DNA from: an uncultured Candidatus Accumulibacter sp.
Lineage (GTDB): Bacteria; Pseudomonadota; Gammaproteobacteria; Burkholderiales; Rhodocyclaceae
Length of the DNA: 64,000 nucleotides
NCBI GenBank assembly: GCA_964420975.1
Contig: CAYQVH010000018.1
Span: 8,847 to 72,846 of the forward strand
Direction: 5' to 3'
A program made the position numbers and the translations under genes. Below the pieces are notes generated by a model. It worked only from the letters and a program-made list of their open reading frames with translations, had not been told where the DNA came from and ran no database searches. Below are positions 42,352 to 48,196 of this stretch, piece by piece (position 1 is the stretch's first letter; each line of letters starts with the position of its first letter).

Positions 42352-42783
42352 TCAAATCACGACGAGATGACGGCTTCCTGCCTCAGGAACGGCTTGCAGC
42401 GGTACCGCGCGACCCAGCGTCACCAGGCGGCCGCCTTGCTGCACCGCCAGCGCCAGCAGATAGACGTCGGTCACTTGGCGGGAGCCGAGGACGGCATTCC
42501 AGGCAATTCGTCCGCGATCGAGGATGCTCACGGCGTCCGACCAGAAGACGTGATGGCTGGTCGCCGTCGCCCCCGCGAGGCGTTCGGCGATGGCTCCGGC
42601 CGGCAGTGGGTTGGGGTAGCCGGCTTGTGACATGATCCGGATACAACCGTTCTCGGTCAGCGGGCACGACGCCCAGCCCGACTGGATATTCTCTTGCAGC
42701 CAGGCCATGGCTCTGCCGTGATGCAGGTGATCGCTGTCCAGCAGGGCGATCAGCACATTCACATCGAGCAAGGCGCGCATCAA
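42352..42783 (-). CDS. vapC: VapC-type PIN domain toxin
   Basis: LLDVNVLIAL, TENG, QVTDVYLLALA PIN acidic residues. Confidence 0.88.
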   Translation of the reverse strand: MMRALLDVNVLIALLDSDHLHHGRAMAWLQENIQSGWASCPLTENGCIRIMSQAGYPNPLPAGAIAERLAGATATSHHVFWSDAVSILDRGRIAWNAVLGSRQVTDVYLLALAVQQGGRLVTLGRAVPLQAVPEAGSRHLVVI

Positions 42784-43028
42784 ACGCCTTCCTCGTCTCT
42801 CAGCTGGTCTACCTGCTCGTTGGTGACCACTTTCCCCCGTGACGGGAACGGTCGGAAACCGTGGACGGCCGCCGGCTCGCCGGTGCTGCTGGTCGTCGAT
42901 GGCGGCGATTGGGTCAGGGTTTGTCGCACGAGCTGCGAGATCACCCGGCCGGCCGTCGTCCCGCCACGCCGGGCAAGCTCCTTGGCAGCCAGCAAAACAT
43001 CGTCTTCGATATCGAGTGTGGTGCGCAT
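42780..43028 (-). CDS. vapB: VapB-type RHH/CopG antitoxin
   Basis: MRTTLDIEDDVL RHH start, VVTNEQV..LRDEEG tail; 4-nt overlap with the toxin gene. Confidence 0.85.
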   Translation of the reverse strand: MRTTLDIEDDVLLAAKELARRGGTTAGRVISQLVRQTLTQSPPSTTSSTGEPAAVHGFRPFPSRGKVVTNEQVDQLRDEEGV

Positions 43029-43187: not shown

Positions 43188-43302
43188 GTAGGTTGCGCTG
43201 AGCCCGCGAAGCCCAAGCGCCTGAACCAGGCGAGAGACGTTTTGAAGCAGAACGATGAGACGAGGCGCCGCGGGTTGTTGGGCCTCGCGAACTCAGCCCA
43301 AC
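43188..43302. repeat. Degenerate inverted REP doublet (GTAG family)
   Basis: GTAGGTTGCGCTGAGCCCGCGAAGCCCAAGC (43188-43218) and inverted GTTGGGCCTCGCGAACTCAGCCCAAC (43277-43302). Confidence 0.55.
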
Positions 43303-43959
43303 GGACACGCTGCGGCAACCCGGCGTCGAAGCCTGGGGGTCGGGTATCATCGCCGGGAGGGTGGTGTCGTTTGGCGATGACCGGAGGACGAGGGGGGCCG
43401 GTTTCTCGATGAGTGCGTCGTGCTTGCGGGTGGCGATCACCTACGTGCCCAGGCTCAACTCAGGGCGATTGCATGAATCTTATACAAGACCCAGAAGTTC
43501 GGCGCGAAAGCTGTCGGAAGAGGCAGCGATGAGTCGCTGAACCTTGAGGCCGCCCTTGCGTTTTACGGGAGCAAGGCGCAGGAGGTTCAAGACAAACTGG
43601 CGTAAGACGGCGAAATTCTGAGCGACATGATCGGTACGCGCGCGCATCGGGTCGTCGCCAAAGACGACATCCATGCACCCATGCAAACTGTTTTCGACGC
43701 GCCAGTGCATGCGGACAGCTTCGTTCATGCGCTGCGCGTCGGGAGCCAGGCTGCTCACGTAGAAACGACGTTCAACGGAGGTTTTTCCGCGGATCGTCCG
43801 CTCGCTGGTGATCATCGCGAAGGACTTCAGGTCTGGCCAGCGATTGGGAGCGTGCAGGCAGTCAAGCGGGTCGAAGACATGGCACCGCCGGACCTCCAAC
43901 CGGCCATGATCTTTATATGGACGCCTCCCGTTTGCCAAGGACGATATTGGTGTGTTGGG

Positions 43960-44115
43960 ACAGATAGGCTGCAGTTTTATATCCGGCCTGTAGTGCAGGA
44001 GGATGCCTGCTGGCCCTGATGGAATCCGCTGACCCGCGCCTCATTTCTCCAAAGGACTCGAAGTCCGAAAGAACATTCAGGCTTGGCGGGTCACGGTCTG
44101 ACCTGTTTGCCATCA
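43960..44115 (-). ncRNA. Predicted bridge RNA / seekRNA of the IS1111-group element
   Basis: Two stem-internal loop-hairpin units; loop strands match the target (AAAGAACAT 44068-44076, TTTCTCCAA 44044-44052) and the circle junction (ATGGAAT 44019-44025, TTTATAT 43976-43982); boundaries approximate. Confidence 0.8.
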
Positions 44116-44194
44116 CACTTTTATCGACCTTGCGCAACCTTTACGGCGGCCACTCCTTTCATCAAAGTGGTTGATGCAACGTTGTGCGTTGGCC

Positions 44195-45220
44195 CTACGC
44201 GGGCTGACTCACAAACCCTTTTTGGTACGTCCGCTCATGGGCCAGCAGGGCCCAGATCGTGCGCGCCATCTTGTTGGCCAACGCGACCACCGCGACATTC
44301 AGCGGCCGGCGTCGGCGCAGTTCCGTGATCCACGGTTCCGGCTCCCGGGTATGCGTCAGCACCGAGCGTGCGCCGTGGATCAGCAGCGTGCGCAGGTAGG
44401 TATCGCCGCGCTTGCTGATGCCCAAGAGCCGTATTCGCCCGCCAGTGCCGGTTTGTCGAGGAACCAGACCCAACCAGGCGGCAAATTCGCGCCCGGATTT
44501 GAAGGCCTTGGCTTCGCCCATCGTGGCCACCGCCGCCGTCGCGCTCAGCAGGCCCACGCCGGGAATGCCGGCAAGACGCTGGCAGGCTTTGTCTTCTCTG
44601 TGCCAGACCTTGAGCCGCCGCTCGATTTCCCCGATTGCATCGTCGAGCTTGCCGATGCGCGCCCACTGCTCGCGCAGGGTGTCGATGACCATCGTCGGCA
44701 GTCGATCCGCCAGCCGCTGTAAGGCTTCGGCCAGGCCTTTCCTGAGCCCGACCTTGCCTTGTGCCATCACTTCGCCATATTCGGTCAGTAGCCCGCGCAG
44801 GCCATTGATCTGCGCCGTGCGGAACTTCACCAACTGCTGGCGCATGCGGTGCAGGGCCAGCATCGCTTGCTGCTCCTCGGTCTTGACGGCCACCGCCTTG
44901 ACACCTGGCTGCTGCACCGCCGTCCAGATGGCGCGGGCGTCATGCGCGTCGCTCTTGTTGCCGCCGACGAAGGGTTTCACCCCCTTGGCCGGCATGAGTT
45001 TGACCTCGTGCCCCATCGCGACGAGTTTCCTCGCCCAGTGCTGCGATCCGCCGCAGGCTTCCAGACCGATCAGGCAGGGCGCCCGGTTGGCAAAGTGCGC
45101 CAGGAACTTCTCGCGCTTGAGCTGCAAACTCACGATTTCTCCGGTCGCCAAGTCGATCCAGTACAACTGAAACACCCGTTTGGCGATATCCACGCCAACC
45201 ACTGTTTTGCTATCCTTCAT
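44195..45220 (-). CDS. IS110 family DEDD recombinase/transposase (341 aa)
   Basis: VGVDIAK, GLEACG, KSDAHDA, IPGVG, FAAWLGLVP, KRGDTYLRTLLIHGA, VALANKMAR; RBS GGAGG before ATG 45220. Confidence 0.96.
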   Translation of the reverse strand: MKDSKTVVGVDIAKRVFQLYWIDLATGEIVSLQLKREKFLAHFANRAPCLIGLEACGGSQHWARKLVAMGHEVKLMPAKGVKPFVGGNKSDAHDARAIWTAVQQPGVKAVAVKTEEQQAMLALHRMRQQLVKFRTAQINGLRGLLTEYGEVMAQGKVGLRKGLAEALQRLADRLPTMVIDTLREQWARIGKLDDAIGEIERRLKVWHREDKACQRLAGIPGVGLLSATAAVATMGEAKAFKSGREFAAWLGLVPRQTGTGGRIRLLGISKRGDTYLRTLLIHGARSVLTHTREPEPWITELRRRRPLNVAVVALANKMARTIWALLAHERTYQKGFVSQPA

Positions 45221-46251
45221 TTCGGACCCTCCGGTTTGCCTGTGAAGATCCCATTCCTCCACCTTGGGCACTTCGATGCCGTCGGCCCGTGAGGGTCCCT
45301 CTCCCATACAACCACCACCCAGACTTATCCACGGCGCCGGGCGCCGACGGTCACCTCTATGACCAGAGGTGACCGGCGCGGTGGTTAAGTCGTGTTCAGC
45401 GCTCACGGGGTGGGAGGCGTCCATTCCATTTCTCGACGACTTCGTGAAACGGATGAGGCGTCTTGCCTGGCGCTGCCTCGAAGGCGCTGACAAAATCCGT
45501 GATCGACTCGGCCAGTGTGGGCGGATTGTCCTTGACCGCCAGCACATCGTTGGCCCCCCGATCGCGAATGGCTTGTGCAATGCCGGGCTGGGTGCCCATG
45601 GCGTCGATGGTCACGATGCAGCCTTCCAGGGCCAAGGTCGCCAGCAGTTCGGGAATGGCGGTCTTATCGTTCGACTTCGCGGCCGTCGCACGCTGTCCCA
45701 GCACCAGGCCCGCCTGGGCGGCAAAGGCGCTGACCAGATGCCACGGCGTGGCACCCACTTTTCCTGATCGACGGCTCGTCTTGCCGTCGATCGCGACCAC
45801 TTCGCCCTTCGTCAAGGCCGGCACCACCTGGCCCACCCAGCGCAAGAACGCCGCACCGAACTCGTCGGGATCCATCGCCGCGAAGACGCGGCCAAACGTG
45901 TCATGGCAGGGGATACCGCGCTCAAGTTTCAGATACTTCCGTAGCCCGTCCCGTTTCTCTTTCGCCCACACCTCGATAGCGACGAAGGTATCGGCACCCG
46001 ACAGGACCGCGCAGACGGCAACCACCCGCCATTCCACCCGATCGTGCTCGACCTTCTTTGCCTGTCTTGGGTCCCGCACCCCAACCCAGACGTCTACCCA
46101 CCGAACCGAGTTCTCTGCCTGCATGGAAACCCCCAAAAAGACAGAAAACTACACAAATCAGAGGGCTGTGAACAGCCCCTTCGTAACTCCTTGAGGGTAA
46201 ACGATTATTTTGAAGTGTTCACGACGATGGCATTCATGCGATTGCCCTGGG

Positions 46252-46312
46252 GGTCAAACGCGTTCCGTTATATGCTTGCTCGCCAACGTTACGCCCCCTC
46301 CCGATCGCTCTT
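46252..46312 (+). repeat. 61-bp direct repeat, copy 2
   Basis: 59/61 identical to 40976-41036; starts 2 bp outside the ISAs1 TIR and ends 18 bp before the nucleotidase start codon. Confidence 0.9.
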
Positions 46313-46330: not shown

Positions 46331-48196
46331 ATGCGCCCGTCTTCGTTCTACCCGCTCGCGCTCGGCGGCGTCTGCCTTCTGGCACTCGCTCTCGCTGCTT
46401 GCCAAACGCCAGTCAGTCCCGCGCCCAAGCGCGCCGGTCTGGAAATTCACATCGCGCACATCAACGATCATCATTCGCACCTCGAAGCGCACCCCGACTT
46501 CGAAGTGCGGGTCGACGGCGTGCCAACGCAGGTCGAGCTCGGCGGCTTCCCGCGGCTGACGACACTCTTCAAGCAACACGCTGACTTGCCGAACCTGATC
46601 AAGGTCCACGCCGGTGACGCGCAAACGGGTACGCTGTACCACACGCTCTATCACGGCGAGGCCGACGCCGCCTTGATGAATACGGTCTGTTTCGACGTCC
46701 TTGCGCTCGGTAACCACGAATTCGACGAGGGCGACGCCGGGCTGCGACGCTTTCTCGATCATCTGCGCAGCGATTCGTGCCGGACGACGGTTCTCGCCGC
46801 CAACGTTGAACCGGCGCTCGGAACACCGCTGGCGCCCGAACGCCCGCACGACTACTTGCAGCCCTACGTCTTGCGCCAGTTCGACGGGGTTACCGTCGGC
46901 TTGATCGGGATCGACGTGCGCGGCAAGACGATGCTCTCGTCGCGCCCACTGCCAAGCACCGTTTTCCGCGACGAGATCGAAACCGCCCAGCGGATCATCG
47001 ACGCTCTGCGCGCCCAAGGCGTTCGCCACATTGTCCTGGTTACCCACCAGGGCTACGCGGCCGATCGGCGAATGGCGGCCGCCTTGAGCGATGTGGATGT
47101 CATCATTGGCGGCGACTCGCACACGCTGCTCGGGGAGTTCGGAGCCTTCGGGATCGCCGGTGTCGGACCGTATCCGACGGTGGTCAGCAACCGAGACGGC
47201 GATCCGGTGTGCATTGGACAGGCGTGGGAGTACGCCAAGGCGTTTGCCTTGATGAAGGTCCGTTTCGACGAGCATGGAGCCGTCGCCGATTGCCACGGCG
47301 AGGTGACGCTGCCGATTCGCGACCGCGTGCGGCAGCGAGACGCGACCGGCGCGTTCGTCGAGGTCGACCCCACGACGCGCCGCACCGTGCTCGCTCGCCT
47401 GACCGCCGAGCGCAGTGTTCGTGTCGTCAGCCCCGACCCCGGCGCGCAGGGACGGCTCGAACACTACGCACGCCGCCTGGAAATCGTGGCGCGACAGCGG
47501 ATCGGCACCGCGGACGAGGCGCTGTGTCTGGTCCGCGTGCCTGGAGAATCCGGCCATCGCAGCGCCGGTGTCGCCGGTTGTGAGGCGGCGAATACCCTGG
47601 CCCGCGGCAGCGACGTCGCCCAGGCCGTCGCCAGCGCGTATCGACAGGCCAGCTTACTGGCTGATGTCGCGCTGCAAAACGGCGGCGGCGTGCGCGCCGC
47701 AATCGCCGCCGGGGGCGTCAGCTACCGCACCGCGTACGACGTCCTGCCGTTCAACAACGTGCTGATCGAACTTCAACTCAGCGGCCAGCAGATTCTCGAC
47801 GTACTCGAGGAAGCCGTCGCCAATCATGTCGATAACGGCGGTTCCGACGGTTCACACCCGTACGCCGCCGGCCTGCGCTGGCATCTCGACCTGTCACGAG
47901 CGCGCGGGCAACGATTCACCCAGGTCGAAGTCCGCGCCCGAAGCGCTGACGAGTGGCAGCCGCTCGAACCGGATCGACGGTACACGGTCGTCGTCAACGA
48001 CTATCTGGCCCAGGGCGGCGACGGTTATTCGTTGCTGGCAAGGTTTCACCGCTCCGAAGACAGCGTCAACACCTACCTCAGCTACACCCAAACCTTCGTC
48101 GATTACCTGCTGGCGCGCGGCCGCATCTCGCGCCCGCCGGCGGCGGAATACAGCCACCAGAGCGTGATCACTCGAGACGGCCAACGCCTTCGTTAG
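46331..48196 (+). CDS. 5'-nucleotidase/metallophosphatase lipoprotein (NadN/UshA-like)
   Basis: Lipobox LAAC; HINDHHSH, AGDA, GNHEFD, GGDSHT, NGGGVR, LPFNN. Confidence 0.92.
   Translation: MRPSSFYPLALGGVCLLALALAACQTPVSPAPKRAGLEIHIAHINDHHSHLEAHPDFEVRVDGVPTQVELGGFPRLTTLFKQHADLPNLIKVHAGDAQTGTLYHTLYHGEADAALMNTVCFDVLALGNHEFDEGDAGLRRFLDHLRSDSCRTTVLAANVEPALGTPLAPERPHDYLQPYVLRQFDGVTVGLIGIDVRGKTMLSSRPLPSTVFRDEIETAQRIIDALRAQGVRHIVLVTHQGYAADRRMAAALSDVDVIIGGDSHTLLGEFGAFGIAGVGPYPTVVSNRDGDPVCIGQAWEYAKAFALMKVRFDEHGAVADCHGEVTLPIRDRVRQRDATGAFVEVDPTTRRTVLARLTAERSVRVVSPDPGAQGRLEHYARRLEIVARQRIGTADEALCLVRVPGESGHRSAGVAGCEAANTLARGSDVAQAVASAYRQASLLADVALQNGGGVRAAIAAGGVSYRTAYDVLPFNNVLIELQLSGQQILDVLEEAVANHVDNGGSDGSHPYAAGLRWHLDLSRARGQRFTQVEVRARSADEWQPLEPDRRYTVVVNDYLAQGGDGYSLLARFHRSEDSVNTYLSYTQTFVDYLLARGRISRPPAAEYSHQSVITRDGQRLR

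Follow-up and report, generated by a model that had tools for sequence, protein, structure and literature searches.

Nested insertion sequences at the locus

We analysed a pair of nested mobile elements within a 64,000-nucleotide stretch of DNA (herein referred to as the window) from an uncultured Candidatus Accumulibacter sp., in which an inner element of the IS1111 group lies inside an outer insertion sequence (IS) of the ISAs1 family, both on the minus strand. A sequence-only reading of the window had proposed that the inner element is RNA-guided and that its guide is programmed against the transposase genes of ISAs1. The two elements comprise the following features.

43461-46249, minus strand: host ISAs1-family IS, about 1272 bp once the insert is subtracted, with terminal inverted repeats at 43461-43478 and 46232-46249
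45432-46136, minus strand: N-terminal part of the interrupted ISAs1 transposase open reading frame (ORF), ending ...FHEVVE(K), with PF13808 and PF01609
43480-43914, minus strand: C-terminal part of the same ORF, starting (K)DHGRLEV..., with PF01609
43914-45430, minus strand: IS1111-group IS of 1517 bp, delimited by the 6+3-bp extension convention of Siddiquee et al., its ends aligning with those of 160 relatives
43912-43914, minus strand: AAA shared at the 3' junction, including the AA core dinucleotide; its counterpart is at 45429-45431
44195-45220 (stop codon included), minus strand: DEDD transposase/recombinase gene, 341 aa, with Pfam domains PF01548 and PF02371
45412-45424: left sub-terminal inverted repeat, ATGGACGCCTCCC in the transposase-strand reading, 6-7 bp from the element tip
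43917-43929: right sub-terminal inverted repeat, 3 bp from the element tip

When joined, the two halves of the host transposase form a single uninterrupted ORF of 380 codons containing ...HEVVEKDHGRLE... / ...FHEVVEKDHGRLEV..., and the rejoined protein was recognized by the NCBIfam model NF033564 (ISAs1 family transposase) with 363 bits (cut-off, 70). The closest plasmid-borne relatives of the host element, at 65-70% identity, are annotated as ISAs1 or ISPa60-like. By its DDE transposase and its terminal inverted repeats (I5; 18 nt, 89% complementary), the interrupted host is classified from sequence as an ISAs1-family element. The same site was also found in its uninterrupted form: one public contig (run X4) represents the empty ISAs1 site, in which exactly 1517 bp are skipped with three ambiguous letters (TTT, plus strand), and two further runs (X5 and X6) gave high-depth contigs (depth 66-95) carrying the uninterrupted site ...CCATGATC|TTTCTCGAC. 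Both the 380-codon ORF and these empty-site contigs confirm that removal of the insert restores the ISAs1 reading frame (V-E-K-D-H), as had been noticed from the letters of the window. The extent given there for the insert, 43906-45437, was corrected to 43914-45430. The boundaries may be shifted by up to 2 nt, AAA (TTT on the plus strand) being present at both junctions and once in the empty site; these 3 nt are all that is shared in the empty-site contig, i.e. there is no true target duplication. No further copy of the element, of its RNA scaffold or of its ISAs1 target was detected elsewhere in the window.

The inner element encodes a recombinase, identical to protein P0001, that was identified by PF01548 (50.6 bits; cut-off, 29), PF02371 (74.1 bits; cut-off, 21.3) and the NCBIfam model NF033542 (IS110 family RNA-guided transposase; 326 bits, cut-off 140). 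Its motif GLVPRQTGTG aligns to the SG motif of ISCro4 (9t56), with T opposite the S of ISCro4; IS621 (8wt6) was matched over the same region as ISCro4, with weak similarity (E = 3.6e-5) in the C-terminal domain only. The sub-terminal repeats form a perfect 13-nt inverted repeat (I22), a motif found at only these two places in the window, and are followed outward by an extension of AATGGA or AAATGGA at the left end and of ATA at the right end. The non-coding end downstream of the transposase gene is 281 nt long, as compared with 210 nt upstream. IS1111 elements have been defined by a GL-P----S(t)G motif and a transposase of 330-350 aa (PMC11187229), and all the sequence features listed in that study as defining the group are found here. 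With its protein domains, inverted repeats and catalytic motif, the element is by sequence an intact, previously unnamed IS1111-group member of the IS110 family.

The guide RNA and its covariation with insertion flanks

Among all the relatives, conservation is restricted, apart from the transposase, to the downstream non-coding end, in which we identified the following RNA features.

43965-44116, minus strand: conserved seekRNA/bridge-RNA scaffold of about 150 nt in the 3' non-coding end, delimited by consensus structure and covariation
44086-44093 (5' arm, GCGGGTCA) and 44030-44037 (TGACCCGC), minus strand: outer stem closing the target loop, RNA UGACCCGC/GCGGGUCA
44067-44078, minus strand: target-loop 5' strand, RNA 5'-GAAUGUUCUUUC-3', complementary to the top strand G-AA-AGAACAT; AAAGAACAT is at 44068-44076
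44054-44066, minus strand: inner hairpin GGACU-UCGA-GUCC separating the two guide strands (GGACT 44054-44058, AGTCC 44062-44066)
44042-44053, minus strand: target-loop 3' strand, RNA 5'-UUUGGAGAAAUG-3', sense of the left half-site and core; TTTCTCCAA (reverse complement TTGGAGAAA) is at 44044-44052
44016-44029, minus strand: putative donor-loop 5' strand, RNA GCGGAUUCCAUCAG, in which AUUCCAU is complementary to the left-end start ATGGAAT (44019-44025) at 7/7 positions
43974-43984, minus strand: donor-loop 3' strand, RNA GGAUAUAAAAC, matching the right end and core (CCATAT-AA-A); TTTATAT is at 43976-43982

The scaffold is more conserved than the coding part, its nucleotide identity being 75-93% in relatives whose transposases are 70-88% identical, and its two hypervariable stretches coincide exactly with the two target-loop strands. 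The 301-nt end folds better than all of 100 shuffled sequences (z = -3.6). In an alignment of 48 diverse relatives, five helices with 25 pairs were evaluated against shuffles and against partners slid along the alignment: 98% of the cells are paired, as against at most 45% in the slid controls, and 12 of the 25 pairs show compensatory changes. The observed values were reached by none of 500 shuffles on four of the five measures and by 5 of 500 on the fifth (further pair types). The outer stem (helix 1) contributes 8 pairs, 6 of them compensatory, and is 97.7% paired; together with a 3-bp CCU/AGG helix it closes the internal target loop. In the inner hairpin, 2 of 4 pairs switch from GC to AU or from AU to GC, in 15 and 24 of the 48 sequences. 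The outer stem and the GGACT/AGTCC hairpin, both of which had been pointed out from the window alone, are thus present where they were placed and are backed by covariation.

The two strands of the target loop match the two halves of the ISAs1 site, the 5' strand agreeing with G-AA-AGATCAT at 9/10 positions and the 3' strand, UUGGAG-AA-A, with GTCGAG-AA-A at 7/9 positions, so that this part of the earlier proposal holds. The order of the strands, with the complement of the top strand lying 5' of the match to the bottom strand and the two overlapping in the target, is that of IS1111 seekRNAs (Siddiquee et al. 2024, PMC11187229). If the RNA acts like those of ISEc11 and IS621, the 3' strand (UUUGGAG-AA-A), being the sense of the left half-site plus AA core, would pair with the bottom strand, and the 5' strand (AUGUUCU-UU-C) with the top strand of the core and right half-site; the second loop would hold the element's own right end and core (AUAU-AA-A), and the circularised element would be inserted by recombination at the shared AA core.

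The relation between guide and target was examined using a set of 160 loci with transposases 70-89% identical, taken from one genome per species and from metagenomes and representing about 130 independent insertions. The longest stretch of exact match between each 5'-strand guide and the 3' flank of its insertion has a mean of 6.19 nt, as against 3.45 +/- 0.09 after permutation of the guides; for each 3'-strand guide and the 5' flank of its insertion, the mean is 6.35 nt, as against 4.46 +/- 0.10. On both strands, none of 1000 permutations was as high. In anchored profiles, the 4 nt left of the core match the 3' strand at 90-98% (shuffled, 43-63%) and the 6 nt upstream of the flanking ATG match the 5' strand at 59-94% (shuffled, 29-51%). 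The core itself is AA in most elements and AG in some, with target, element ends and both RNA loops switching in concert. The donor-loop 3' strand likewise covaries with the right-end variants ATATAA, ATATAG, ATACAA and ATACAG.

An alternative is that the matches between loops and flanks are coincidental, the target being selected by the protein or by similarity to the sub-terminal repeat and the 3' end serving as a terminator or a transposase-binding site. The sub-terminal repeat GGGAGGCGTCCAT indeed resembles a Shine-Dalgarno motif followed by CAT, and the Rfam scan of 43400-46300 gave no family match at E <= 1. The guide-flank covariation on both strands and the co-change of the core at four places speak against it, as does the experimental precedent in IS1111 seekRNAs (PMC11187229). 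Moreover, four relatives (L051, L134, L135 and L158) carry guides unlike a ribosome-binding site and have correspondingly matching flanks, pointing to the RNA instead of the protein as the determinant of the target. We therefore regard the coincidental origin of the matches as highly improbable. The claim of an RNA-guided IS1111 element with a target loop, with its bridge/seekRNA logic, stands on the family profiles, the conserved RNA fold and the guide-flank covariation taken together.

Some observations count against RNA guidance as drawn here. The second loop had been proposed to match the predicted circle junction; both ATGGAAT and TTTATAT are present and the right-end strand covaries as described, but the putative donor 5' strand AUUCCAU does not track the left-end variants of the relatives, since the left-end start varies (ATGGAAT, ATGGTAT, ATAGAAT, ATTGAAT, ATGGGAT) and the RNA carries no matching changes. 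Furthermore, RNAalifold pairs CCAUCA, a part of this strand, with the upstream UGAUGG (44110-44116). For these two reasons, the assignment of AUUCCAU as the right-hand donor guide is uncertain. No contig spanning a circle junction was seen in 13 runs (X1-X14 without X8). The one RNA run (X11) is too shallow; its low-depth contigs cover the transposase gene and the left junction, and the non-coding end is represented by none, a further point in favour of the coincidental alternative. Expression of the guide RNA is therefore something that we infer. A scan for sigma-70-like promoters gave none within the linear element; by eye, TTGGCA-N15-TATAAA would span the circle junction formed by the abutted ends, and a promoter may be located there, by analogy with other IS1111 and IS110 elements.

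Two side observations concern the non-coding ends. One lineage (L074) alters both sides of the CCAUCA/UGAUGG pairing. In the 5' non-coding end, an imperfect palindrome of 32 nt (45322-45391; I1, 78% complementary) is shared by the closest relatives only; it sits in a segment of about 100 nt that is lacking or replaced by other sequence in distant relatives, as indicated by split left-end BLAST matches, and joints at this segment were also detected in run X3.

Target preference of the clade and the insertion in ISAs1

The flanks of the relatives are not those of ISAs1 but take the form ...(A)GGAG-AA, element, AA-N5-6-ATG..., and all the relatives are inserted in one orientation relative to the direction from Shine-Dalgarno sequence to ATG. 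An ATG is present in 109 of 117 distinct 3' flanks, mostly 7-8 nt past CCATAT, and in 76 of these 109 it opens an ORF of at least 60 codons, as compared with 9 and 35 in the other two frames; about 30% of the sites carry no long ORF opening. A Shine-Dalgarno-like 4-mer was found in 80 of 99 5' flanks, with the logo G-G-R-G-A-A. When ten of the downstream ORFs were tested, nine gave Pfam domains beginning at the N-terminus, including thiolase (from residue 4), ExbD, SDR, DUF1993 (from residue 5), ABC transporter ATPase, MsrA, TatA and others. On the side of the RNA, the alignment shows near-invariance (at least 90%) of the AU pairing with the start-codon AT, and the 3' guide strand before the core is almost always GGAG, AGGA or GAGG. 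The flanks thus show that this clade, with thousands of relatives in Proteobacteria and other phyla, is inserted at ordinary genes, separating the ATG from its Shine-Dalgarno sequence, and the aligned guides show a common template: a tetranucleotide resembling Shine-Dalgarno, then the A(A/G) core, a spacer, 5-6 specific nucleotides and the invariant AU. In the literature searched, which did not cover ISfinder, no IS110 or IS1111 element was reported to target ribosome-binding sites. On balance, we lean toward the view that these elements form a large, apparently undescribed clade of the IS1111 group, with a target loop built to recognise translation initiation regions and with offshoots that have been re-aimed, including toward the terminal repeats of ISAs1.

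The register between guide and insertion is variable. The distance from the crossover to the match anchored on the ATG is 7 nt in 42 events, 8 nt in 33, 9 nt in 8 and 10 nt in 6, and it shifts by 1-3 nt from one insertion to another, including insertions of a single element (L018-L022, L035-L040). The left half-site with the core and the 5-6 nt proximal to the ATG appear to be read semi-independently across a flexible spacer of 5-8 nt. The possibility that GGGAGG at the right end supplies a replacement Shine-Dalgarno sequence for the downstream gene was considered and rejected by inference only, since it lies about 16-18 nt from the ATG, too far for that role.

The re-aimed offshoot consists of a sister lineage at six loci (L003:2803-4311, L004:2803-4311, L029:38-1493 and ~4100 (inverted), L083:149-, L104:-1308 and L109:898-2351), with transposases about 78-87% identical to that of the window element and with guides of the form (C)AGGGC-AA-(A)TCGCGCTAT or AATCGCAT; CAGGGC-AA-TCGC(G)C(T)AT. 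Of the six loci, L104 lacks a readable 5' junction and L083 a readable 3' junction. The five readable 5' flanks terminate in CAGGGCAA, with unrelated sequence before it, and the five readable 3' flanks start with (A)TCGCGCTATG. An ISAs1-type transposase gene comes next in four of these loci, and L029 has insertions of this lineage at either end of one ISAs1 copy. The guide of L083 fits the terminal repeat of the window's own ISAs1 (CAGGGCAATCGCATGAAT, 46232-46249). As judged from guides and flanks, the target of the sister lineage is the terminal repeats of ISAs1, 8 bp from the tip; this is not a property of the window element.

The guide of the window element was compared with this template. 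Its 3' strand, UUUGGAGAAAUG, occurs more often than any other in the clade, and it is shared without change by at least ten elements at other sites (L001, L002, L013, L015, L035-40, L082, L087, L094, L107 and L132), which sit in normal ribosome-binding sites before unrelated genes. The ideal target of the window guide, TTTGGAG-AA-AGAACAT(G) (TTTGGAGAAAGAACATG), corresponds to the ribosome-binding-site template, and the site used in ISAs1, GTCGAGAAAGATCATGG or cGAG-AA-AGAtC-ATGg (codons V-E-K-D-H-G), differs from the ideal 15-mer by three mismatches (12/15 match). The ATG at this site is out of the ISAs1 frame and opens 26 codons only; the site is therefore a pseudo-ribosome-binding site. By chance, 64 kb of sequence should contain about 0.5 matches to the 15-mer with at most three mismatches, implying dozens per genome, so that a match of this quality is not special; and, because any insertion is found where its guide fits, the match between guide and site cannot by itself decide the question of programming. 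The insertion was probably an opportunistic, near-cognate hit on a look-alike of a ribosome-binding site, not the outcome of a guide evolved for ISAs1. The copy in the window would have taken the pseudo-site cGAG-AA-AGAtC-ATGg within the ISAs1 ORF as a mimic of a ribosome-binding site.

The distribution of copies was surveyed in the public records and in environmental runs. The records place a transposase identical to that of the window on a 1238-nt contig lacking flanks and on contigs with the window's own configuration, and nowhere else. One contig of 811 nt from run X6 is identical to the window over 43912-44125, including both loops, and runs on into ...CATCATCAGGA|TTTATATGG / GGAATCATGCGGCTTTTTGCATCATCAGGA|TTTATATGG; this different site lies outside ISAs1, has the transposase-strand reading CCATATAAA|TCCTGATGATGCAAAAAGCC and contains ATGs. 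None of the 160 relatives lies at the VEKDHGR position of ISAs1, and in a tblastn search with the ISAs1 protein, ISAs1 was found near only five relative loci and never at the VEKDHGR site. As to the check suggested in the sequence-only reading, whether the flanks of other copies lie in ISAs1 ORFs, the survey gave one insertion in ISAs1 and one, with an identical non-coding end, outside it. The exact target-loop pattern gave no match in metagenome contigs. Cluster mates at 90% identity or more were ruled out as copies of the same element, being from a different species with other guides (L162) or a decayed remnant (L164/L165). This remnant (L164:2043-3293, L165:1792-2780) is that of a close relative at 95% nucleotide identity, 5'-truncated at element position ~390, interrupted close to the stop codon by some 160 inserted nt and ending after the donor-loop 5' strand; its target loop is nearly that of the window (GAAAGCACAGA vs GAAAGAACATT).

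The sequence-only reading had taken the guide as selected for the conserved E-K-x-H-G-R codons, ISAs1 being a multi-copy, host-neutral safe harbour that is parasitised and inactivated. Three lines of evidence favour such programming: the 12/15 match of the site, with other ISAs1 copies only 2-3 mismatches away; the presence of the interrupted copy in samples of three studies; and the sister lineage, about 85% identical in its transposase, which demonstrates that targeting of one IS by another does occur in this clade. The left guide strand is, however, the commonest of the clade and is common to elements in ordinary ribosome-binding sites, and both the invariant AU and the Shine-Dalgarno-like motif are features of the clade, not specific for ISAs1. 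In addition, in runs where the element or its relatives occur, uninterrupted ISAs1 sites are abundant and at least 10-fold deeper than the element, no perfectly matching ISAs1 variant was seen, and the chance expectation of near-matches and the survey of copies given above point in the same direction. With its generic clade guide, its pseudo-start, its copy outside ISAs1 and the abundance of empty sites, the element is unlikely to have been programmed against ISAs1 genes, and this part of the proposal is not upheld.

On the other side of the balance, VEKDHGR is conserved at the DNA level in the ISAs1 subfamily, four other copies, G(T/G)(G/C)GAGAAAGACCATGG, being 2-3 mismatches from the ideal, so that multi-copy ISAs1 may be a recurrent, harmless landing site. 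The ISAs1 site is also the best-matching site known for the window guide, and just one other site is known with the same guide, on a single low-depth metagenomic contig whose right flank fits the guide poorly. With two known sites for this guide, a small chance is left to the programmed reading.

An intermediate possibility is that the guide is a generalist for ribosome-binding sites and that, since ISAs1 exists in many copies and insertion into it is free of cost to the host, copies landing there are preferentially retained by selection, so that ISAs1 becomes a de facto refuge without programming. Insertions between the Shine-Dalgarno sequence and ATG of real genes should often harm the host, whereas the present one inactivates a transposase only; and the interrupted ISAs1 copy was found in runs X1 and X2 at a depth equal to that of the surrounding genome and recurs in several samples. 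Nevertheless, just one insertion in ISAs1 is known, and relatives persist before ordinary genes in many genomes that are complete or nearly so, where a single genome can contain as many as 6 copies (L035-L040). We consider this refuge even less likely than programming, and the opportunistic hit on a pseudo-ribosome-binding site is retained as the preferred explanation.

The population represented by the window is present in activated-sludge and wastewater runs of several studies. The junction between the element and ISAs1 (45402-45658) was recovered unchanged from activated-sludge and wastewater runs of 2018-2023 that belong to at least three studies and include one metatranscriptome, and on this basis the carrier population seems to be widespread in treatment plants. 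As to the surroundings of the nested elements, a PIN-domain protein (143 aa, PF01850) is encoded at 42355-43028 on the minus strand, preceded by an overlapping ORF of 82 aa without Pfam match, and the two look like a toxin-antitoxin pair of the VapBC type beside ISAs1. On the other side of ISAs1 there is a gene of 5'-nucleotidase type (46331-48196). In runs X1 and X2, one contig links position 46312 back to 43300 with 2263 other letters in between (carrying window positions 43300-43519 and 46252-46312), which suggests a second arrangement, or a repeated copy of the ISAs1-flanking sequences, in the same population.

Comparison with known RNA-guided insertion sequences

The element is one of thousands of natural bridge/seekRNA recombinases, and the result of its analysis is deflationary for the claim of ISAs1 programming. 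RNA-guided IS1111 elements as a kind are known; what is possibly unreported is the class of targets at the level of the clade, that is, ribosome-binding sites. If this is true, the guide RNA mimics what the ribosome reads and so finds targets in any bacterial host, and the element is placed exactly between the Shine-Dalgarno sequence and ATG, systematically uncoupling host genes from their Shine-Dalgarno sequences. The approximately 130 natural guide-target pairs would, if confirmed, provide data on the tolerance of IS1111 seekRNAs to mismatches and to changes of register.

The agreement with the IS1111 seekRNA elements (ISEc11, ISXne4, ISKpn4, ISPst6 and ISPa11; PMC11187229) is extensive, covering the DEDD transposase of about 340 aa with its GLxPxxxx(S/T)G motif, the 13-bp sub-terminal repeats with extensions of 6-7 bp and 3 bp, the longer non-coding region downstream of the transposase gene, the position of the top-strand complement 5' of the bottom-strand match with overlap in the target, and the natural re-targeting of relatives by exchange of the two guide strands on a conserved scaffold. 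Those elements target attC sites, REP sequences or one short linear site, whereas the clade herein described appears to be directed to a template of the translation initiation region, and its distance from the crossover to the ATG match, 7-10 nt, is variable within one element.

With the bridge RNA of IS621 and the IS110 group (Durrant et al. 2024, PMC11208160; Hiraizumi et al. 2024, PMC11208158), the RNA of the window element shares the presence of target and donor internal loops, the use of the two strands of each loop to address opposite DNA strands, and a core dinucleotide common to target, donor and both loops. In contrast to IS621, the RNA is located at the 3' end, not the 5' end, and its guide strands follow each other in the opposite order; the element has long sub-terminal repeats and belongs to a clade with a core of AA or AG instead of CT, and the right-hand donor guide is without support from covariation. 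A fixed register between guide and crossover, as in IS621, was not found in this clade, and its flexible half-site spacer is not predicted by the fixed-register model of IS621. The 'half-match' insertion reported for IS621 (bioRxiv 10.64898/2026.08.31.748434) may have some relation to the variable register observed here.

The closest parallel for the targeting of one mobile element by another is provided by IS4321/IS5075, IS1111-family elements that, as described in the two papers citing Partridge & Hall (2003) (PMC11208160 and PMC11187229), occupy a fixed position in the terminal inverted repeats of the Tn21 family. The window element is unlike them, since it lies in the middle of an ORF of ISAs1, not in its terminal repeat, and one such insertion is known; a dedication of the IS4321/IS5075 kind, with most copies at the same position of the target element, is not seen for it. 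Such dedication is found in the sister lineage (L003, L004, L029, L083, L104 and L109), which resembles IS4321/IS5075 in its targeting of terminal repeats, those of ISAs1.

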